Of a DNA stretch of 64,000 nucleotides, positions 16,112 through 27,064 are shown piece after piece. Source of the DNA: an uncultured Gemmatimonadales bacterium (GTDB taxonomy: Bacteria; Gemmatimonadota; Gemmatimonadetes; Gemmatimonadales; GWC2-71-9); contig CAVRRH010000007.1 in NCBI GenBank assembly GCA_963723565.1, positions 236,643 to 300,642 of the forward strand, read 5' to 3'. Within the stretch, counting starts at the first letter, position 1. Each line of letters opens with the position of its first letter. The position numbers were made by a program, and so were the translations under genes. Under the pieces are notes generated by a model. The model saw only the letters and a list, made by a program, of their open reading frames with translations. It had not been told where the DNA came from and made no database searches.

Positions 16112-17668
16112 TCACACCCCCCACAGGTACACCGAGTTCAGCGAGCTCGCCTCCAGCTTGTCGGCGTGCCGCGCCTTGTTCAGAGCGTGCACCAGTGCCC
16201 GCGCGCTGGCCTCCACGATATCGGTCGAAGCGCTGTGTCCGGTCAGCGACTTGCCGTCGATCTTGGCCTGCAGAAAGACCTGGCCTACGCTGTCCCGCCC
16301 TGGAGTGACCGATCGCAGTGAAAGGCTCAGCACCTCGAGGTGCCGCTCCAGGATCTCGCTCACCGCCGCGAACGCCGCCGCTATCGGACCGTCTCCGGTA
16401 CCGCGCGCCGAGCGTTCGCCGGTCCACGGTCCCGTCATCCGGACCTCCGCCGTTGCCGTCACGCTGCCGCAGACGACCCGGAGGTGGGTGAGCTGATACT
16501 CCTCGGGCGCGTCGTGAAAGCTCTCGTGCAGCAGGGCCAGCAGGTCCTCGTCCAGGATCTCGCGCTTGCGCTCGGCGAGCGCGGTGAAGCCCTGGTACAG
16601 GGCGGCCAGCTCCTCCTCGCTGAGCTGATAACCCAGCTCCTGGCAGCGGCGCTCCAGCGCGTGCCGGCCGGAGTGTTTCCCCAGGACGAGCGTCGAGCGC
16701 GGAATGCCGACCATCTCGGGCCGGATGATCTCGTAGGTGAGCCCGTTCTGCAGCATCCCATGCTGGTGGATACCGGCCTCGTGAGCGAACGCGTTGCGTC
16801 CCACAATGGCCTTGTTCGGCTGGGGAAAGACCCCGGTGAGGTAGGAGAGGAGCTGGCTGGTGCGATAGATCTCGCGCGACTCTACCTTGCACTGGAACGC
16901 CACCGCGGCTCCGCGCACCCGGCTCGCCATCACAATCTCCTCGAGGGCCGCGTTCCCGGCGCGCTCGCCGATCCCGTTGACGGTGCACTCGACCTGTGCC
17001 GCTCCGGCCGCGATGGCGGCCAGTGTGTTCGCCACGGCCAGGCCAAGGTCGTCGTGGCAGTGAGCGCTGAGGATCACCCCATCGCTCCCTGGCACCCGTT
17101 GGCGCACGTCCCGGAACATCGCGGCATACTCGGCCGGCATCGCGTAGCCGACGGTATCCGGCAGGTTGATGGTCGTGGCTCCCTCTTCTATAGCGGCTTC
17201 CACCACCCGGCAGAGAAAGTCGGGGTCGGTGCGGCTGGCATCTTCGGCGGAGAACTCCACGTCGTCGGTGTACTGGCGAGCCCGGCGGACCGCATCGCGC
17301 GCCATGGCGAGAACCCCCTCGCGCGTAGTACGCAGCTTTTCCCGGATGTGAAGATCGGAGGTGGAGACGAATACATGGAGCCGGCCGCGGGCCGCTTCGC
17401 TGATCGCCTCGCCGGCCAGCTCGATGTCCCGTTCCAGACAGCGTGCGAGCGCCGCGATGACCGGGCTCCGGACCTCGGTCGCAATGTCTCGCACGCTCCG
17501 GTAGTCGCCCTCGGACGCGGCCGGGAAGCCGGCTTCGATGATGTCGACGCCGAGCGCGTCGAGCTGGCGAGCAAGGCGGAGCTTCTCTTCGGGCGAGAGA
17601 CTGTTGCCGGGCGCCTGCTCACCGTCGCGCAGCGTGGTATCGAAGATCAAGACTTCCGGGATTGCCAT
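16112..17668 (-). CDS. leuA: 2-isopropylmalate synthase
   Basis: Intact 518-aa ORF with [30 protein letters not shown] and a C-terminal LeuA dimerisation/regulatory domain. Confidence 0.93.
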
Positions 17669-17691
17669 ACGTCGCTTTCGGGCTGAAGGGT

Positions 17692-17726
17692 AAAGAAAAG
17701 CGCCGCGAACTCTTGGTCCGCGGCGC
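17692..17726 (-). terminator. intrinsic terminator (attenuator) 24 nt upstream of the leuA start
   Basis: On the minus-strand RNA: GCGCCGCGGA, loop CCAAGAG, UUCGCGGCGC, then UUUUCUUU. This is a 10-bp stem including one G-U pair. The left arm has an alternative perfect 10-bp partner, GUCCGCGGCG, at 17775-17784. Confidence 0.7.
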
Positions 17727-17754
17727 CGGTTGCAATCAGTGGAGACTTACCGTC

Positions 17755-17850
17755 TCATGTTGCTCGTCTAGGCACGCCGCGGACCCCTCGCTCACCGATG
17801 AGGACGGTAAGCAGGACGCTAAGGAGGACGACGACGAGGACGAGCTGCAT
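17755..17850 (-). CDS. putative branched-chain amino acid operon leader peptide (31 aa, MQLVLVVVLLSVLLTVLIGERGVRGVPRRAT)
   Basis: ATG at 17850, TGA at 17757-17755. Fourteen of residues 3-18 are Leu, Val or Ile. The ORF ends 29 nt before the terminator stem, and its codons 22-25 form the antiterminator strand. Confidence 0.6.
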   Translation of the reverse strand: MQLVLVVVLLSVLLTVLIGERGVRGVPRRAT

Positions 17851-17914
17851 GTGCTTGAGCCGTGTATCGAGTGTTGGTGACCAGGCCGGAACTTTATGCT
17901 TCGGCCGGATCATC

Positions 17915-17943
17915 AGGCTACGCCATTACGAAGGCACTGTCAA
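17915..17943 (-). promoter_or_regulatory. sigma70-type promoter TTGACA-N17-TAGCCT for the leader-leuA operon
   Basis: On the minus strand, TTGACA (17943-17938), a 17-nt spacer, then TAGCCT (17920-17915). It lies about 60 nt upstream of the leader ATG. Confidence 0.45.
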
Positions 17944-18005
17944 GAGCAAGCCAAGTACCCGAGGCAACAATTTTGTAACCAGCGACATTGGCGTAGGATT
18001 CCGTC

Positions 18006-18034
18006 TTGACGGATTCACCCCAATGCATAATAAT
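18006..18034 (+). promoter_or_regulatory. sigma70-type promoter TTGACG-N17-AATAAT upstream of the gltB leader
   Basis: TTGACG at 18006-18011, a 17-nt spacer, then AATAAT at 18029-18034. It is in the only AT-rich patch of the leuA-gltB divergent region. Confidence 0.45.
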
Positions 18035-18138
18035 GCGGTATGAATCTGCATCGCGCCCGGGTAACCCTTATCGTGAATCTCAATCTCGTCCGCTCCAGGG
18101 GAGCGCCCGGGTGAGCTTAGCGTCTTCACGTTAACCCC

Positions 18139-18170
18139 GGCCTGCTCCCAAGTGGAGCGGGCCTTTTTTA
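18139..18170 (+). terminator. intrinsic terminator within the gltB leader, 55 nt upstream of the gltB ATG
   Basis: GGCCTGCTCC (18139-18148), loop CAAGT, GGAGCGGGCC (18154-18163), then TTTTTTA. This is a 10-bp stem with one G-U pair. Confidence 0.65.
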
Positions 18171-18224
18171 TGGCCTCGAGTACGGCCTCTCCGGCCGCTG
18201 GGGCACGACAACTCAGGAGACACC

Positions 18225-21200
18225 ATGGCCGCCAATGGGCAGCGGATCCACCCGGCCGGTTCCCGTCAGCACCACCGACGACACGCCGCCACTCGTGCAA
18301 CAACCTCCCTCGATTCCACCCGTGAGCATGATGCGTGCGGCGTAGGCTTCGTAGCCGCGGCATCCGGCGTTCGCAGCCATGAGGTAATCGCCATGGCCGT
18401 CGAGGCGGCGGCCCGTGTGGCGCACCGGGGCGCGGCCTCGACTGACCTGTCAGGCGATGGCGCGGGCCTTCTGACCCAGATCCCTCACCGATTGTTCTAC
18501 CGGGACTCCTACCGGCTGGGACTTCACCTGCAGCCCGGGCTCCCCTTTGGCGTGGGAGCCTTTTTCCTGCCGCCGTCCGGAGAGGCACTGGCTGCCTCGG
18601 TCAAGATGGTCGAGACGGTGCTGGCCGGGGACGGCATTCCGATCCTGGGCTGGCGCGACGTGCCGACGAATCCCGCTGCACTGGGCCCCACCGCGCAGGC
18701 GTCGTGTCCAGTCATCCGGCAGGTCCTGGTGGGCCGGCCGGCGCTCACGACCGACGAGGACGCCTGGGAGCGAGCCCTCTATCTGGCCCGGCGCGAGATG
18801 GAGCGGCGAGCGGAAGAGGCCAGGTTCCCCGGCTTCTACGCCTGCTCGATGTCCTGCCGCACCATCGTGTACAAGGCGTTGCTCACCGGAACCCAGCTCC
18901 CGGCGTTCTTCACCGATTTCCGGTATCCGGAATACGAGAGCGCGATCGCCGTCTTCCACCAGCGCTACTCGACCAACACCCTGCCCAGCTGGCCCCTGGC
19001 ACAGCCGTTCCGCCTCCTGGCCCATAACGGAGAGATCAACACGTTGTGGGGCAACCGGAACGCCATGACGATGCGGCAGCCGATGCTCGCCTCGCCGATA
19101 TGGGGAGAGAAGATCGAGCGGCTCAGGGAAGTCATCTGGCGGGAGGGCAGCGACTCGGCGAGCCTCGACAACGCGATGGAGCTGCTGGTTCGTTCCGGCC
19201 GTGATGTGATACACGCGTCGATGATGACGATCCCACAGGCGTGGGAGAAATACTCCGACCTCGATCCCGGGGTGAAAGCGTTCTACGAGTATCACCAGTG
19301 CATACTGGAACCGTGGGACGGTCCGGCCGCTCTCGCCTTCACCGACGGCGTGCTGGCGGGCGCCGCGGTGGATCGCAACGGGCTCAGGCCCTGCCGGTAC
19401 AAGGTGCGGGCGGACGGCCTGGTGGTGGCCGGCTCCGAGGTTGGCCTGGTGGACCTGGATCCGCGCGAGGTGGTGGAGTGCGGGAAGGTCGGCCCCGGTG
19501 AGGTCCTGGTGGTGGATACCCGTCGAGGAGAAGTGATTCGCAACCTCGACGCAAAGCGGGAGGTGGCGGCTCGCCGCCCGTACGCGCGCTGGGTCGCCCG
19601 CTACATGGCGACCCTGGTTCCCGACCCCGCGAGAGTTCCCCCCACCCACAGCGGCGAATCATTGCTGCGACTGCAGCGGGCGTTCGGCTACGGTGCCGAG
19701 GACTTGCGGATCGTGCTCGAGCCAATGGGCAGCACCGGCGGCGACCCGGTCTGGAGCATGGGTGACGATACTCCGATCCCGCCGCTCTCCGCCGTGCCCC
19801 AGAGTCTCTACGCCTATTTCCGGCAGCGGTTCGCTCAGGTCACGAATCCGCCGATCGATTCACTGCGCGAGTCCATGGTGATGTCGCTCAGGATGCACCT
19901 GGGCCGGCGCGGCTCGCCCTTGCTCGAGCGAGCCTCGTACGCCCGGATGCTGCGGCTGGAGCACCCGATCCTGCTGGCAGAGGAGATGGCGGCCCTTCGG
20001 AATGTCGCCGGGTTCTCGACCGTTACCCTGGATGCCGTATGGAATCCGGCGAAGGGAACCGGCGGACTCAAGTCCGCCCTCACCGCGCTCCGCCGTGCCG
20101 CGGAGCGCGCCGCGCGTCGGGGAGCACACATCCTCATCATCAGCGATCGCGCCGCCACTGACCGCCACGCACCCATCCCCATGCTCCTGGCCATCGGGGC
20201 GGTGCGCCAGCATCTGGTCCACGTCGGCCTGAGGGCCCGGGTGGGCATCGTGGCCGAGGCGGGCGACGCATTCGATATCCACCACTTCGCCACCCTCATC
20301 GGTTACGGTGCGGAGGCGGTGCATCCCTGGCTGGCCCTGGAGAGCGTTGACGAGATTTTCAGCGAGGTAGGGGCGACGCGATGCGTCGCCCGCGGAACCA
20401 GCGTCCCTCCCCGTTGAGGCAAGACATCAGTACCGCACGGCGGCCGAGAAGGGACTGCTCAAGATCCTCTCGAAGATGGGGATCTCCACCCTCTCCTCCT
20501 ACTGCGGTGCCCAGATCTTCGAGGCGCTCGGGCTCGGCAACGAGGTGATCACATCCTGCTTTGCCGGTACCGCCTCGCCACTCGGCGGGATCGGCTTCGA
20601 GGAGCTGGCCGAAGACGTCATGGCAGCGGCATGGGTCGGCGTACCAGGCCGTGGAGGCTGCTTCGCTACCGGATCACGGGCGAGTGCGCTTTCGCAAGGA
20701 GGGCGAGGATCACGGCTGGGCACCCCAGATCGTGATGGCACTGCAGCAGGCAACGGGAAGTGGGAGGAAGGCGGGCGGACGGGCGGAAGGGCGGAGGGCG
20801 GACAGACGGAAGGGACGGTGAGCGGCTATCAAAACTTTCTCGCGAAGAACGGAGCTCGACGTCCGGCGGGGCCGCGTGATCTGCTGGCCGTGAAGCGTGG
20901 TGACCCGATTCCGCTGGAGCAAGTCGAGCCAGCCGAAGACATCCGCCGCCGATTCGTGTCCTCCGCCATGTCCCTCGGCGCTCTCTCGCCGGAGGCGCAT
21001 GCCACGCTGTCCATCGCCATGAACCGGATGGGCGCGCGGTCGAACTCGGGAGAGGGCGGTGAGGATCCCGCGAACTACCACGGGCTCGGCAATGGCGACC
21101 GGGCCGACAATCGGGTGAAGCAGGTGGCATCCGCCCGATTCGGCGTGACCACCGAGTACCTCACTCGGGCGGAGGAGCTGGAGATCAAGATCGTCCAGGG

Positions 21201-22897
21201 CGCCAAGCCAGGTGAGGGCGGACAGCTTCCGGCCCACAAGGTCACCGACCTCATTGCCCGGCTGCGGCATGCCGTGCCCGGGATTCAGCTCATCTCGCCG
21301 CCGCCGCACCACGACATCTATTCGATCGAGGACCTGGCCCAGCTGATCCACGATCTCAAGACCGTCAATCCCCGCGCCCGAGTCGGGGTGAAGCTGGTTT
21401 CCGAAACCGGTGTGGGGACGGTGGCAGCCGGAGTGGCCAAGGCCTACGCCGACTACGTGCTGATCGCGGGGCACAACGGCGGCACCGGCGCATCGCCGCT
21501 CTCATCCATCAAGCACGCGGGCTCGCCCTGGGAGCTGGGACTGGCCGAGGCGCAGGCTACCCTGGTGCGAAACGGGTTGCGCCATCGAATCGAGGTCCGC
21601 ACCGATGGAGGACTGAAGACCGGACGGGACGTTGTCATCGCCGCTCTGCTTGGAGCGGAGAGCTACGGCTTCGGCACCGCGCCGCTGGTGGCCATGGGAT
21701 GCGACATGGCCCGGCAGTGCCACATCAACACCTGCCCGACCGGCATCGCCACCCAGCGCGAGGATCTCCGGGCCAAGTTTCGCGGGACGCCGGAGCAGGT
21801 GATCTCCTATTTCACCTTGATCGCCGAGGAGGTGCGGGGCATTCTGGCGGGTCTCGGTGTCCGCACCCTGGATGAGATTATTGGGCGCAACGATCTCCTC
21901 GAGCGAGTCGAGTGCCCCGACGTGCCGCGGGCGCAGATGCTGGATCTGTCGGTGCTGCTGGCGGGACAGCGGGACGGGCGGACAGAAGGGCAAAACGTAG
22001 CGCTGCGCCGCACAGTGGAGCGCAACGATCGGCCCGGCCTGGTGTCTCTCGACAACGAGATCCTGGCCGATCTGAAGCCGTATCTGGACTGCGCGCTTCC
22101 CTTCTCCGGCAACTACCAGATCCGCAACCACCATCTCACGGTGGGCGCGCGAGTGGCAGGCGCCATCGCGGAGCAACACGGGGATGAAGGCCTACCGCCT
22201 GGATCGGTTCGTCTTCGCTTTACCGGTACCGCGGGCCAGAGCTTCGGGGCGTTCCTCTGCCGCGGCGTGCATCTCGAGCTCGAAGGCGAGGCCAACGATT
22301 ACGTCGGCAAGGGACTGAGCGGAGGCGAGATCACCATCCGGCCGTTCCGCCGTGCCGGCTACGCCGACGTGTCGCACCAGCATCTGATAATCGGCAACAC
22401 CGTTCTCTACGGTGCCACTGCCGGGAAGCTGTTTGCCGCCGGCCAGGCGGGCGATCGCTTCGCGGTCAGAAACTCCGGCGCGGTAGCGGTGATCGAGGGA
22501 GCGGGCAACCACTGTTGCGAGTACATGACCGGCGGGATCGTCGTCGGTGCTCGGCCGTGCCGGCCGAAACTTTGCTGCCGGCATGTCGAATGGGGTGGCA
22601 TACGTCATGGACGAAGCCGGCACGTTCGCCAGCCGGCTGAACGGCGATCATGGTGGAGCTGGAGTGACCTGGATGACGAAGATGTCGAGCTGCTGCGGAA
22701 GCCTGATCCGGGAGCACGAGGAGAAGACGGTGAGCGCCAGGGCACGGAATATCCTGGTGCGGTGGGAGGAATACCTGCCACTGTTCCGAAAGGTCATGCC
22801 GAAGAGTGCGGCGCTCCAAGTCGCCGTCATTAGGGCGGCCTATCTGAGCTCGCCCCCCGCCGAGGCCGAGCTTTGGTTGGCACGCAGAACTGCCTGA
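18225..22897 (+). CDS. gltB: glutamate synthase large subunit (at least 7 frameshifts as sequenced)
   Basis: Conserved GltB blocks can be followed across frames:
- The amidotransferase Cys (HDACGVGFVA) and N-terminal domain, in ORF 18225..20417.
- [24 protein letters not shown] and the FMN domain (MSLGALSPEAH, SNSGEGGEDP, KIVQGAKPGEGGQLP, GHNGGTGASP), in ORF 20476..22833.
- The C-terminal GXGXG domain, ending in ORF 22547..22897.
Resolved shifts are at about 20390, about 20620, within 20755-20818, about 22540, and at 22649, 22665 and 22699. Confidence 0.92.
20755..20818. repeat. single-arm tandem 7-8-mer array (GGGCGGAN units) inside the gltB coding sequence
   Basis: GGGAAGTGGGAGGAAGGCGGGCGGACGGGCGGAAGGGCGGAGGGCGGACAGACGGAAGGGACGG. 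It sits between the conserved ALQQA.GSG and SGYQNFLAKNG..RDLL blocks. The reading frame changes across it. Confidence 0.7.
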
Positions 22898-23057
22898 GCC
22901 CTCAACCGCGCTGGCGGCGTGCCCTAAGCGTTCCGGGTAGGGCACGCGGGCGCATTCTGCAGTCGCAGGCCAAAATACAGGAGTTTCTGGCCCTTCACCT
23001 GTGTGGTCCGGCTCCCCAACTGTAAAGCTTTCAGCCACTTCCCACATACCGAAAATT

Positions 23058-23072
23058 TGGCATATGCATTGC
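23058..23072 (+). promoter_or_regulatory. sigma54 (-24/-12) promoter TGGCAT-N5-TTGC
   Basis: TGGCATATGCATTGC has GG and GC at the canonical spacing. It lies about 60 nt upstream of ATG 23131. Confidence 0.6.
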
Positions 23073-23130
23073 CCTGTGGCCGCTGCACTGCGGCCGGTCG
23101 GTAGATGGCCTCTACTCGTTGAGGACCTGC

Positions 23131-23316
23131 ATGAACTTCGATAGGGTCGAATACGATCATCCGGAGGGCAGACGAATCCTGTCCCAGGAAGAGTGGAGCG
23201 CCCTTGGTCCGGTTGAGCGGGTAACTGCGATCGGCCAGAGTCGAGTCCGGTTCTATCGCAACGGTGTGAGGATCACCGCGAGGGAAGCGGTGAGGCCTCA
23301 GGGAAAGGCCTCGTGA
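23131..23316 (+). CDS. small hypothetical protein (61 aa)
   Basis: ATG 23131 lies 5 nt after GAGGA; TTG 23119 is an alternative start. Sequence MNFDRVEYDHPEGRRILSQEEWSALGPVERVTAIGQSRVRFYRNGVRITAREAV... matches no family I recognise. Confidence 0.45.
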   Translation: MNFDRVEYDHPEGRRILSQEEWSALGPVERVTAIGQSRVRFYRNGVRITAREAVRPQGKAS

Positions 23317-23362
23317 TCAACCGCTCGAGGGTGGCGCAGAACCGACCGAGAACGTTTCCATC

Positions 23363-24025
23363 ATGGAGGCGATCATGGAAGTAGAGAAGGAGTTGGGGCA
23401 GTCGGAGCGTGGGCAACGCCTCTTCGAAGAGCATCTACACGACCATCGCAGCAAGCTCGACCGGCTGTTCTCCGTGCTCCTGCTGGTTCAATGGGTGGCG
23501 GCGGTCGTGGTGGCGCTCGTCTGGTCTCCCATCGGATGGGCGGATAAGCAGCAGGTAGCGAGCGGACATCTCGCCCTGGCAATCCTCGCCGGCGGGATCC
23601 TTGCGCTGGCGCCGCTGATCATGACCCGGCTGATGCCTGGCAGCAGGCTGACGCGTCACGCCATGGCCGCAGCACAAATGATGTTCTCCGCACTCTTCAT
23701 TCATCTGAGTGGGGGCCGGATCGAAACACACTTCCACGTCTTCGGCTCGCTGGCCTGGCTCGCATTTTACCTCGACTGGCAGATCCTCCTCACCGCGACC
23801 ATCACGGTTGCGCTCGACCACGCTGTGCGCGGCATTGTCTTCTCCGAGTCGGTGTACGGCATGGTGCACGCGGGGCATTGGCGCTTCGTGGAGCATGCGC
23901 TCTGGGTGGTGTTCGAGGACATCGTCCTCTTCATAGGCTGCCACACCGGCGTGCGCAGCATGCTGGAAGGGGCCGAGAAACAGGCACAGCTCGAAGCGGT
24001 CACCGAGAGCGAGCAGAACAAATAG
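23363..24025 (+). CDS. hypothetical polytopic membrane protein with His-rich TM motifs
   Basis: 220-aa ORF with about 5 hydrophobic helices. Motifs GGRIETHFHVFGSLAWLAFYLDW, LDHAVRG and HAGHWRFVEHALWVVFED, followed by a short C-terminal coiled tail. Confidence 0.55.
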   Translation: MEAIMEVEKELGQSERGQRLFEEHLHDHRSKLDRLFSVLLLVQWVAAVVVALVWSPIGWADKQQVASGHLALAILAGGILALAPLIMTRLMPGSRLTRHAMAAAQMMFSALFIHLSGGRIETHFHVFGSLAWLAFYLDWQILLTATITVALDHAVRGIVFSESVYGMVHAGHWRFVEHALWVVFEDIVLFIGCHTGVRSMLEGAEKQAQLEAVTESEQNK

Positions 24026-24112
24026 GCGGTACCTGAGCGTAACCCAAGGCGTCGAGGAGGCCAGGCTGCTGGTCCGGCGCAGCGCGTAGGGGTTCCCGAT
24101 GATGCCGCTAGC

Positions 24113-24269
24113 AATCATCGCGAGCGGCCGGAGAGCCTGCCCTGAGCGGCATCGAAGGGCCGCAGGGCGATCCAGTAGTCATTGCGAGCGGTCCGGAGGA
24201 CCGCGCGGCAATCCGGGCCCCTCCGCACGTGGGCCACTGGATTGCTTCGGGCTTCGCCCTCGCAATGAC
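24113..24269. repeat. nested core palindromes (CATTGCGAG..CAATCC / GGATTGC..CTCGCAATGAC unit plus a GCCTGCCCTGAGCG unit)
   Basis: GTCATTGCGAGCGGTCCGGAGGACCGCGCGGCAATCC (24178-24214) is mirrored by GGATTGCTTCGGGCTTCGCCCTCGCAATGAC (24239-24269). It is preceded by ATCATCGCGAGCGG..CCTGCCCTGAGCGGCATCGAAGGGC, which is related to 27561-27593. Confidence 0.7.
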
Positions 24270-24315
24270 TCCGTTCGGCTTCCACACCACTTGACGGATC
24301 CTGCCGAATAGCTAA

Positions 24316-24335
24316 CTTGCTGAACAACAAGCAAG
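24316..24335 (+). promoter_or_regulatory. candidate TetR operator (CTTGCT-N8-AGCAAG)
   Basis: A 6-bp inverted repeat 15 nt upstream of the TetR start. It is short, so the support is weak. Confidence 0.3.
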
Positions 24336-24349
24336 CTGCAAGCCCTTGC

Positions 24350-25029
24350 ATGAGTAAGCATTGGACTCACAAACCCGACCGCACCCGAGACGCCGAACGG
24401 AGCCGAGCCGCAATCTCTCGACGCTGCGGAACGGCTGTTCGCCGAACAAGGGTATGATGCCACCAGCCTGACCCAGGTCGGGGCCGCTGCCGGCGTCTCC
24501 CGCGGCACTCCCGGCTACTTCTTTCGGACCAAAGCCGAGCTGTATCGAGGCTGTGCTGGACCGCTCCCTCGCCGAGGTCCGCGAGGCGGTCCGGATCGGC
24601 CGCGAGCGGGCGCTCGCCAGCAGCGAGAGCCCGGAGACGATCCTCGCCGGCGCGGTCTCCGATTATTTCGACTTCCTCTCGGCCCGTCCCTACTTCATCC
24701 GTCTGATCGAGCGGGAAGCGCTGAGAATGCTCCGCCGCCGAGTCGGCGTGGACCACCTCTCTGCCGGACAGGAAGCGCTGGCCGCGATCAGCGCCGAGCT
24801 CGGCCTCGAGGACGCGCCGTCGGGCGAAGCCGCGCAGCTCCTCCTCAGCATCATCTCGCTCTGCTGGTTCCCTCTGATCCACGCCCGCACCGTCGCTCCG
24901 GCGGTCGGAGTGGGCCTGAGGACCCCGAAGAGCTGGAACGGCGCAAGCGTCACGTCATCTCGCTGGTACTGCACGGTCTCCGCGGCCCAGCCGTCGCCAC
25001 TACCTTCAACCGAGTCCCCCGAGCCATGA
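24350..25029 (+). CDS. TetR/AcrR family transcriptional regulator (at least 3 frameshifts as sequenced)
   Basis: The HTH region RSRAAILDAAERLFAEQGYDATSLTQVGAAAGVSRGTPGYFFRTKAELY is readable after removing single bases near 24416 and 24549. The C-terminal ligand domain is in ORF 24553..25029. ATGA overlap with the downstream dehydrogenase. Confidence 0.8.
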
Positions 25030-26888
25030 CTGATCTTCTCACGCCCCCAGTACAGGGTACGCAGACCCCGCTCGCCACCGAGCAGGAAGCCCGAGAGGTC
25101 GCCGAGGCCGCACGGGAGAAGGAATGGCAGGCGCCCAGCTTCGTGCGGGAGCTGTTCGAGGGCTCGTTCCGGCTCGATCTGGTGCATCCGTATCCCCCAG
25201 CCCGATCCGGCCGACCTGGCCCGCGCCAAGCCGTTCATGGAGAAGCTCGAGCGCTTCATGCGGGAGCGGGTGGACAGCGACAAGATCGACCGCGACGGAA
25301 AGATCCCGCCCGAGGTCGTGAAGGGACTGGGGGAGATCGGCGCCTTCGGCATCAAGATCCCGAGCGAGTACGGCGGTCTCGGTCTGAGCCAGTACAGCTA
25401 CACCCATGCGATCGGACTGGTGACCAGCCAGGACGGCAACCTCACCGCCCTGCTCTCCGCCGCGCAGTCGATCGGCGTTCCGACCCCGCTCAAGCTGTTC
25501 GGCACGCCGGCGCAGAAGAAGAAGTATCTGCCCCGCCTAGCCCAGGGTGCGGTGTCGGCCTTCGCGCTGACCGAGAACCACGTCGGCTCCGACCCGGCGG
25601 CGCTCGAGCACCACCGCCACGCTCTCCGAGGACGGCAAGCACTACATCCTCAACGGCGAGAAGCTCTGGTGCACCAACGGCACCATCGCCGAGCTGATGG
25701 TGGTGATGGCCCGGACCGGGCCCAAGAAGATCACGGCGTTCATCGTGGAGACCAACTGGCCCGGGGTCGAGGTGGTGCAGCGGCTCCACTTCATGGGACT
25801 CAAGGCGCTGGAGAACGGCATCATCCGGTTCACCAACGTGAAGGTGCCGGTGGAGAACGTGCTCTGGGGTGAGGGCAAGGGGCTCAAGCTGGCGCTGATC
25901 ACCCTCAACACGGGGCGCCTCACCCTGCCGGCATCGGCCGTGGCCGGGGCCAAGCGGTCGCTGGAGATCGTGCGGCGCTGGGCGGCCGAGCGGGTCCAGT
26001 GGGGCCAGCCGATCGGCAAGCACGATGCGATCGCCCAGAAGATCGGGCGCATGGCGGCGGACATCTTTGCCATGGAGGCGGTGAGCGACCTCGCCTCGCT
26101 GATGGCCGACCGGGGCAACGCCGACATCCGGCTCGAGGCCGCGATGGCCAAGATGTGGAACACCGAGATCGGCTGGCGGATCGTGGACGACACCCTGCAG
26201 ATCAAGGGCGGCCGCGGCTACGAGACCGCCGACAGCCTCAGGAGCCGAGGAGAACGGCCCGATCCGGTGGAGCGGATGATGCGCGACTATCGCATCAACC
26301 TGATCTTCGAGGGGTCCAGCGAGATCATGCGGCTCTTCATCGCCCGGGAGGCGGTGGACACCCATCTCAAGCTGGCCGGCGACTTGATCGATCCCAAGGC
26401 GCCGATGGGCAAGAAGATCCAGGCGCTGCTCCGCTCGGGCGCGTACTATGCCTTCTGGTATCCCAAGCTCTGGCTCGGCTGGGGCTGGTCTCCGCGGTAT
26501 GGCGAGTTCGGCGCGCTGGCGCAAGCACATGCGGTTCGTGAACCGCTCCTGCCGGCGGCTGGCCCGCACCCTGTTCCACTGCATGATCCGGTTCGGTCCC
26601 AAGCTGGAGAAGCGTCAGGCGGTGCTCGGCCGGCTGGTGGAGATCGGGGCGGAGCTACTGGCCATCACCGCGGCCTGCTCCCGGGCCTATGCCATGGCAA
26701 ACAGGACCCCACGAATCCGCGGGCCGGTGGAGCTGGCGGAGCTGTTCAGCCGGCAGGCCCGTCGCCGGGTGGAGGAGAAGTTTGCGGCGGTGTTCGACAA
26801 CGACGACGTCGCGACCTACCAGGTGGCCCAGCAGGTGCTCAAGGGCGAGCACAGCTGGATGGAAACAGGGATGGTGCGGGCGGAATAG
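25026..26888 (+). CDS. long-form acyl-CoA dehydrogenase (FadE-like, about 620 aa; 3 frameshifts as sequenced)
   Basis: ACAD blocks [50 protein letters not shown] and [15 protein letters not shown], plus a C-terminal helical extension. They are spread over ORFs 25026.., 25237.., 25697.. and 26448..26888. Resolved shifts are in the C run at 25194-25198, near 25610, and near 26520. Confidence 0.85.
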
Positions 26889-26911
26889 AGGGCGTTCGAA
26901 GGGCCGTCCTG

Positions 26912-27064
26912 GGTAATCCCGAGCGGAGCGAGGGACCGGTCCGGCGTACGTTTGCAAGCGAATTCCCGTTTGCCGACGTTAACCCAGCCGATTTCTCGCT
27001 CCGCTCGAAATGACCGCGCGATTGGCTTCCCTACGCTATCCCTACCGCCGTACCGCCGTACCGC
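26912..27064. repeat. core palindrome (GGTAATCCCGAGCGGAGCGAGGGACC ... ATTTCTCGCTCCGCTCGAAATGACC) plus a CCGTACCG tandem arm
   Basis: Inverted halves lie at 26912-26937 and 26991-27015. The tandem array CCCTACGCTATCCCTACCGCCGTACCGCCGTACCGC lies at 27029-27064. Confidence 0.65.

Follow-up and report, generated by a model that had tools for sequence, protein, structure and literature searches.

A conserved leader ahead of the glutamate synthase gene gltB in an uncultured Gemmatimonadales bacterium: a probable leader-peptide attenuator

Why does a strong intrinsic terminator stand directly in front of gltB, the gene of the glutamate synthase large chain, in a genome of the Gemmatimonadales? The question is raised by the window analysed here, a stretch of 64,000 nucleotides (nt) from the genome of an uncultured soil Gemmatimonadales bacterium (G000; 3.6 Mb, completeness 73%), to which all coordinates refer unless another contig is named. 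The upstream neighbour leuA lies on the minus strand, so a plus-strand terminator at this place ends no upstream gene. An earlier note on the same DNA had proposed an attenuator with a translated short open reading frame (ORF) and alternative 1:2, 2:3 and 3:4 pairings, and this proposal is supported by the ORF and the pairings being kept in related genomes. From these sequence comparisons we consider that the gltB leader is probably a ribosome-mediated (leader-peptide) transcription attenuator of glutamate synthase. That asparagine (Asn) codons are its specific read-out seems possible to us, somewhat short of an even chance.

All elements of the leader were found on the plus strand. A sigma-70-type promoter is located at 18006-18034, composed of the -35 element TTGACG at 18006-11, a 17-nt spacer and the -10 element AATAAT at 18029-34 (consensus score 10/12), just where the earlier note had placed it; through a consensus scan it was the sole promoter-like site in 17000-19000 (50 shuffles gave a mean of 0.2). 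The leader ORF follows at 18040-18114, with ATG at 18040, 24 codons (MNLHRARVTLIVNLNLVRSRGAPG) and a TGA stop at 18112-14, again as had been noted. Within the ORF lies hairpin 1:2 (18091-18105, -8.9 kcal/mol), formed by CGCTCC at 18091-96, the loop AGG and GGAGCG at 18100-05. Segment 2 (18099-18105) can also pair with segment 3 (18143-18149), giving the antiterminator 2:3 at 18099-18149, which has -22.4 kcal/mol including a nested helix P2 (18107-11 with 18136-40), absent from the earlier note. The intrinsic terminator 3:4 occupies 18139-18169 (-21.2 kcal/mol) and consists of GGCCTGCTCC, with the segment 3 core CTGCTCC at 18142-48, the loop CAAGT, GGAGCGGGCC at 18154-63 and six T at 18164-69; the consensus scan gave its stem 10 pairs, 8 of them G-C. 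It is one of only two terminator-like sites in 17000-19000 (shuffle mean 0.9), the other being on the minus strand ahead of leuA. The T-tract ends 55 nt 5' of the gltB start codon (ATG, 18225-27), the distance given before, and a Shine-Dalgarno sequence AGGAG stands at 18215-19.

Hairpin 1:2 and the antiterminator share segment 2, and the antiterminator and the terminator share segment 3, so that in each of these two couples one fold excludes the other. Segments 1 and 3 and segments 2 and 4 are near-duplicates, and a 1:4 pairing is also possible. One detail of the earlier description had to be changed: the ORF does not end over segments 1 and 2 but crosses both, and its stop lies 7 nt past segment 2, within the 5' strand of P2. 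The leader as a whole folds with -54.7 kcal/mol (z = -2.64), and 3 of 200 shuffles were equally good.

We examined the element in several sets of relatives. A genus alignment of 20 sequences was made and the covariance model R1 was built from its core; 52 leaders were then aligned to R1 as the family alignment, which was fitted to 1:2, P2 and 3:4 and not to 2:3. The family survey covered 151 genomes of 78 genera, and the phylum survey was a separate draw of 151 genomes. The tallies of the R1 family survey, the phylum draw and the gltB protein search include three unpublished genomes (G174, G054 and G216), on which alone no claim rests.

The features listed in the earlier note were confirmed as real and beyond chance by their conservation, since a DNA search with the 241-nt leader gave a match in 21 of the 24 other genus genomes; essentially no match was found in two sister families. 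The note had named absence of the hairpins from related genomes as a finding that would speak against it, and the alignment of the regions upstream of gltB in relatives showed them conserved. R1 found one strong copy in G000 (100.6 bits), and in the family it matched 55 of 151 genomes and 33 of 78 genera. In the phylum draw the element was essentially confined to the host family (28/71), with weak matches in two other families (2/31 and 3/13). A loose pattern scan of named genomes gave 80 loci from 119 stretches; strong R1 matches were found in only three, all labelled Gemmatimonadales bacterium, a weak one (L073, 14.5 bits) was disregarded, and the remaining loci belonged to unrelated GC-rich genomes.

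The position of the element is tied to gltB. Among loci fetched from other genomes, gltB was directly 3' of the R1 match in 29 of 29 (tblastn). The gene itself is patchy in the family, being found in 48 of 151 genomes with this query, and in 42 of the 48 an R1 match stood directly upstream (30 by tblastn on fetched loci, G000 included, and 12 by coordinate comparison). The six genomes with gltB and no R1 match directly upstream are G062, G101 and G109, then G070 and G189, where gltB lies at a contig edge, and G163, where the match is on another contig. Twelve family genomes had weak R1 matches and no gltB with this query. Of five high-quality R1-negative genomes, four gave no gltB with this query, and the fifth, G211, has a diverged leader with an ORF (MVLLPLNNPHTPSPGSGGAR) and a terminator.

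This linkage bears on the idea that the element is an independent small gene, encoding a small RNA or a micropeptide, with its own promoter and terminator beside gltB, while gltB would be transcribed from a promoter further downstream. A transcript of roughly 130 nt between such a promoter and a strong terminator would indeed be a discrete small RNA. We nevertheless hold this extremely unlikely, for the element stands directly upstream of gltB in the same orientation in the fetched loci and linked genomes counted above, and it follows the patchy distribution of the gene, R1 and gltB being absent together in four of the five genomes just mentioned. The 55 nt between the terminator and the gltB ATG hold no promoter-like site, and in several genera this gap is only about 20-30 nt. 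In addition, the C-terminus of the peptide is read in different frames in different genera. A contig of 207 nt from a metatranscriptome covers 18073-18279 without mismatch and thus spans the terminator into gltB; contigs cannot show RNA ends, and DNA in the library could also account for it, so it is a weak hint of co-transcription with gltB and weak evidence against an independent gene. Over 17905-18068 no contig of four RNA libraries gave any cover, which proves nothing.

The leader ORF is kept throughout. An ORF of 21-33 codons was present in 52 of 52 aligned leaders, starting with ATG in 46 and GTG in 6 and stopping with TGA in 15, TAA in 12 and TAG in 25, and in all 52 the stop falls inside the 5' strand of P2, 4-11 nt from where that strand begins. 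Start codon and segment 1 stand in the same phase relation in 50 of the 52, whereas the two remaining frames stay open through this stretch in just 11 and 27 of the 52. Within the genus, insertions and deletions in the ORF are multiples of three. The C-terminus is of two types, GAxG-stop and GSDRAA-stop, which are two frames of the same RNA motif; hence what is conserved is the position where the ORF ends, not the peptide. As far as sequence comparison goes, this pattern favours a role for the ribosome's position over a function of the micropeptide itself.

In most leaders the start codon lies 5-8 nt past the -10 element, 5 nt in G000, and an mRNA with its start codon so near is probably leaderless. 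Transcription would start at or within 1-2 bases of the ATG at 18040, and the ORF would be translated as a leaderless message. In one group of genera the 5' end is longer and includes a Shine-Dalgarno-like sequence. A conserved AT-rich box, GCATAATAATGC at 18025-36, forms part of the promoter; TTGAC and ATAATAAT were invariant or nearly so across the 20 genus sequences. The box pattern GYATWWNWATRC has two copies in the 3.6-Mb genome, the second of which sits at a leader of cysH. A role of the box as a nitrogen operator is unsupported in view of that second copy, and it more likely belongs to the promoter or to the context of a leaderless start.

The alternative helices are also kept. Across the 52 family sequences, 88.1% of the cells of hairpin 1:2 were paired (90.8% in the 20 genus sequences), against 98.1% for P2 and 97.6% for the terminator 3:4, in which six of eight pairs had compensatory changes. 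The antiterminator 2:3, to which the alignment was not fitted, was paired at 95.5%. Controls in which one strand was slid by 1-3 columns gave 30-63%. The pair 18099-18149 is a compensatory one in the genus alignment (GC 15, AU 2, UG 1, other 2), and it sits in the loops of both 1:2 and 3:4. The variable inner hairpin inside the antiterminator (18120-23 with 18128-31) showed compensatory changes in 3 of its 4 pairs in the same alignment, whose RNAalifold consensus comprised 2:3, P2 and a 1:4 helix. The duplicated segments of the earlier note, with segment 2 free to pair with 1 or 3, have thus all three pairings kept across at least 17 genera, and its terminator is found again as a well-paired stem followed by T6.

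We propose that the leader would work as follows. A ribosome running freely to the stop codon would cover segment 1, segment 2 and the 5' strand of P2; the 3:4 terminator would then form and the polymerase would stop at the T-tract. With no ribosome, segment 4 would pair with segment 3 or with the near-identical segment 1, and a helix would again stand against the T-tract. If instead a ribosome stalled a few codons 5' of segment 1, it would mask segment 1 alone, and 2:3 stacked on P2 could form before segment 4 is made. Segment 4 would then be left without a free partner, and transcription would read through into gltB. Predicted folds of the partial and masked RNA were computed for these situations. 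For nascent RNA up to 18153, when the polymerase would be on the T-tract, the minimum-energy fold was 2:3 with P2. When the RNA was masked to about 13 nt past the stop codon to represent a ribosome and the full leader was available, 3:4 alone formed; the full leader without a ribosome took an extended 1:4 and 2:3 fold with a helix against the T-tract.

Alternatively, the leader might act like a riboswitch or a protein-dependent antiterminator, with a ligand or RNA-binding protein choosing between 2:3 with P2 and the terminator; the ORF would then be accessory or would merely couple translation. The motifs GGAGCG-N-CCGGG and CCCGG-CCCGCTCC hardly vary within the family, the nascent RNA is most stable when folded as 2:3 with P2, and ORF-free cis-regulatory RNAs, known or proposed, have been described upstream of glutamate synthase genes (PMC8632094). 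On the other hand, the interior of P2 is free in both sequence and length (about 13-50 nt), and the conserved bases are almost wholly helical, with none of the conserved bulges or loops typical of a binding pocket. The ORF and the place of its stop in every aligned leader, and its start phase in all but two, would also be hard to explain in this way. The earlier note could match the leader to no riboswitch class, the glutamine riboswitch included, and the Rfam 15 scan agreed with it: no match at the gathering score was found in the whole 64-kb window. A permissive scan of 17600-18400 (E up to 10) gave eight weak, terminator-driven matches and no riboswitch, the best being rli42 with 21.5 bits against a gathering score of 80. 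We therefore regard a ligand or protein switch as distinctly improbable.

If the leader is a ribosome-mediated attenuator, which codon would hold the ribosome? The candidate is AAT (Asn) at 18082-18084, three codons (9 nt) 5' of segment 1 and here called codon -3; further Asn codons of the ORF are at 18076-78 and 18043-45. Counts that depend on the phase were taken from the 50 in-frame leaders of the 52. Codon -3 was Asn in 37 of 50, namely AAT in 35 and AAC in 2; it was Asn in 21 of 23 leaders of the genus and in 15 of 24 in-frame leaders of 16 other genera, spanning nine of those genera. Asn recurred at -5 in 14 of 50 and at -7 in 8 of 50; Asn runs, among them NLNNLN, NLNLNL and NARNANPVAN, occur in several genera. 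In total, 95 of 1172 leader residues were Asn (8.1%), compared with 2.1% in the long ORFs of G000. The ratio of AAT to AAC was 35:2 at -3, 25:15 at the other upstream positions and 1:15 at codon 2, while the genome background is 24:76. A ribosome with a codon in its A site reaches about 12 nt further, and since segment 1 begins 9 nt downstream, one stalled at the -3 codon would reach into segment 1.

The likeliest stall site would be this Asn codon, nearly always the rare AAT and often with more Asn just before it, and scarcity of charged Asn-tRNA would give more read-through. Asn needs glutamine for its amide, via AsnB, and glutamate for its amino group, via aspartate, so it could gauge assimilated nitrogen. 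Put together, it seems possible to us, at clearly less than an even chance, that the family sets gltB transcription through the speed at which AAU, a rare codon present once or a few times in the leaderless leader, is decoded, with Asn as the gauge of assimilated nitrogen in place of, or beside, regulators of the NtrC, GlnR or TnrA type, and with the near-duplicate segments allowing read-through only when a ribosome is parked before segment 1 and ensuring termination when ribosomes are fast or absent.

The same architecture could have a read-out not specific to Asn, such as general translation capacity or the coupling of ribosome and polymerase, with AAT acting as a generic slow codon or reflecting a constraint on the RNA. 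Most leaders have just 1-3 Asn codons and 3 of 52 have none; the preference of AAT over AAC at -3 is not required by a pure amino-acid signal; and Leu at -4 (29/50) and Val or Ala at -1 (42/50) are conserved too. Against this stand the fourfold enrichment of Asn, its recurrence at -5 and -7 and its runs in several genera. The other upstream Asn codons are AAT-biased as well, while codon 2 uses AAC, and in this genome the leuA and cysH leaders each show enrichment of their cognate residues. We judge a non-specific read-out rather unlikely.

Several points weigh against the attenuator interpretation or against Asn as its signal. When segment 1 was masked and segment 4 was present, the terminator state was the equilibrium minimum, at about -33 to -34.1 kcal/mol as the best masked fold, compared with -22.4 kcal/mol for the antiterminator, a value that scores the pairs of 2:3 and P2 alone; the switch would therefore have to act kinetically, with the antiterminator as a putative kinetic trap. 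The antiterminator of the trp leader is such a trap. In nascent RNA without a ribosome, 2:3 was favoured over 1:2. The low number of Asn codons given above counts here too, and in 10 of 52 leaders no Asn codon lies within six codons 5' of segment 1; the 35:2 bias at -3 could be a constraint on the RNA sequence instead of on the codon. Glu (0.4%), Gln (1.1%) and Asp (1.4%) are depleted among the leader residues, not enriched, so that the leader, unlike textbook attenuators, does not sense the product or the substrate of its own enzyme. In the genus, AsnRS and GatB occur together with several AsnB-type asparagine synthetases; Asn thus depends on glutamine via AsnB and not via tRNA transamidation, which leaves no special direct dependence. 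The conservation counts come from related genomes and are therefore non-independent. Finally, the public RNA runs, being contigs, cannot show where RNAs start or end.

A more direct route, in which Asn codons would report glutamine through transamidation because AsnRS is missing, was rejected, since asnS scored above the cut-off in 4 of 4 high-quality genus genomes. No Asn-rich leader was seen ahead of asnB or asnS in G000.

The gltB leader is not the only one of its kind in the genome. The divergent first leader of the earlier note was recovered at 17699-17851 on the minus strand, with a Leu- and Val-rich ORF at 17851-17756 (MQLVLVVVLLSVLLTVLIGERGVRGVPRRAT), a terminator at 17727-17699 found by the consensus scan, and then leuA at 17668-16112, identified as 2-isopropylmalate synthase by Pfam. 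It is probably a branched-chain amino acid attenuator. Another leader was found outside the window, on the minus strand of contig C11 around position 167413, composed of TTGACA-N17, the box GCATAAATATGC, a leaderless ORF rich in Cys and Met (MNASRPLHLSATTVGLNACGAPCACMCMCACMGNLPRDTF) and a terminator, 3' of which follow cysH-like and sulfite-reductase-like genes; it looks like a cysteine attenuator. Both share with the gltB leader the order of promoter, short ORF, terminator and gene, and the cysH leader also shares the promoter box and a leaderless ATGAAC start. In both, the peptide is rich in cognate residues (Leu and Val for leuA, Cys and Met for cysH), while their RNA segments are unlike those of the gltB leader and R1 misses both. 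That leader peptides enriched in cognate residues are in use in this genome lends credibility to reading the gltB leader as an attenuator, and the three leaders together suggest that the lineage makes general use of sensory short ORFs with leaderless starts for regulation. A crude genome-wide scan for a terminator, a short ORF and a gene gave 73 candidates, of which just the gltB and leuA leaders were convincing; it missed the cysH leader and so has little weight.

In E. coli, the attenuators of trp, leu, his, thr and ilv have a translated leader ORF, a 2:3 antiterminator that excludes the 3:4 terminator, and a ribosome whose position decides between them; the leu leader has rare codons at the control position. 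The gltB leader resembles these in its short ORF, its 1:2 hairpin and the competition of 2:3 with a 3:4 intrinsic terminator ahead of the gene, and it resembles the leu leader in the non-preferred codon at its candidate control position. It differs in the leaderless start of most members, in a candidate control residue, Asn, which is neither product nor substrate of the enzyme, in having usually just 1-3 control codons, in the extra P2 nested in the antiterminator and in the near-duplicate segments 1/3 and 2/4 that permit 1:4 pairing. Its target, glutamate synthase, and its Gemmatimonadales host are also different.

Leaderless short ORFs are also described for the polycysteine attenuators of mycobacteria, where, according to the abstract, a stalled ribosome unmasks a sequestered ribosome-binding site and so controls translation (Canestrari et al., bioRxiv 10.1101/834739). 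The likeness lies in a leaderless short ORF as first cistron and in stalling at the codons of one amino acid, which refolds the mRNA and switches on the genes that follow, as we propose here; in the gltB leader, by contrast, the controlled element would be an intrinsic terminator with a T-tract, and Asn is enriched instead of Cys. The cysH leader of G000 would be closer to these mycobacterial attenuators than the gltB leader, but it has a terminator. The glutamine riboswitch and, in Negativicutes, the gltD motif candidate are structured leaders without an ORF ahead of glutamate synthase genes and thought to bind ligands (PMC8632094). The gltB leader shares with them a structured 5' leader before a glutamate synthase gene; it differs from what is described there in having an ORF, in belonging to another phylum and in matching no Rfam family at threshold, the inclusion of the gltD motif in Rfam 15 being unchecked.

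The gene behind the leader is glutamate synthase large chain, as the earlier note had it: Pfam found GATase_2, Glu_syn_central, Glu_synthase and GXGXG in 18225-22833 on the plus strand. In G000 it is split into ORFs at 18225-20417 and 20476-22833, whereas relatives have one frame of 1500-1650 amino acids. The genes asnS (C8:176028-177299) and gatB (C8:64120-65537) are broken into 3-5 frame pieces in G000 only, so the gltB split is probably an assembly indel too, and indel errors of the assembly would probably also explain the completeness of 73%. G000 and four near-complete genus genomes gave no match to the small subunit of glutamate synthase (TIGR01317, E up to 1e-20), and none was seen downstream of gltB in window positions 22834-27000. 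The enzyme may be of the single-chain, possibly ferredoxin-dependent type.

Glutamate synthase is a central step of nitrogen assimilation and is known to be controlled by protein regulators, with riboswitches in some lineages. In the open-access full-text literature we found no leader-peptide attenuator of glutamate synthase, no Asn control codons and no attenuator of any Gemmatimonadota. Relative to known attenuators, the target gene, the phylum and the candidate control codon would be new. If the proposal is true, a common, little-studied soil phylum couples nitrogen assimilation directly to translation, and one more amino acid is sensed by attenuation. It would also offer a compact, family-wide example in which the start codon, the AAT codon and each of the four segments can be mutated.

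Some further observations concern the neighbourhood of these leaders. In many genomes of the genus, the likely -35 element of leuA, TTGACA (complement of 17938-43), is seen again as TGTCAAG 5' of the gltB promoter. Two weak R1 matches in G000 (21.8 and 21.3 bits) do not adjoin gltB; they were taken as terminator-driven and rejected as further copies. One of them lies ahead of a gene for a sigma-54-type regulator: locus L022 (C7:789633-789737) comprises a short ORF with Cys (MAPRPLNPCCNCGTRRC) that has a Shine-Dalgarno sequence, and a terminator, followed by a regulator gene of the GAF plus sigma-54-activator type.

Between the terminator and the ribosome-binding site, a small hairpin CGGCC-UCUCC-GGCCG was found at 18183-18197. 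The stretch around it folds no better than shuffles (z = -0.09), and the hairpin is missing from many other genera. Within the genus it hardly varies in 19 of 20 sequences; a single compensatory variant (CAGCC/GGCTG) and some G-U variants were seen, and both the Shine-Dalgarno AGGAG and CCATGGCC are invariant in all 20. The loop of this hairpin is complementary to GGAGA of the gltB Shine-Dalgarno region.

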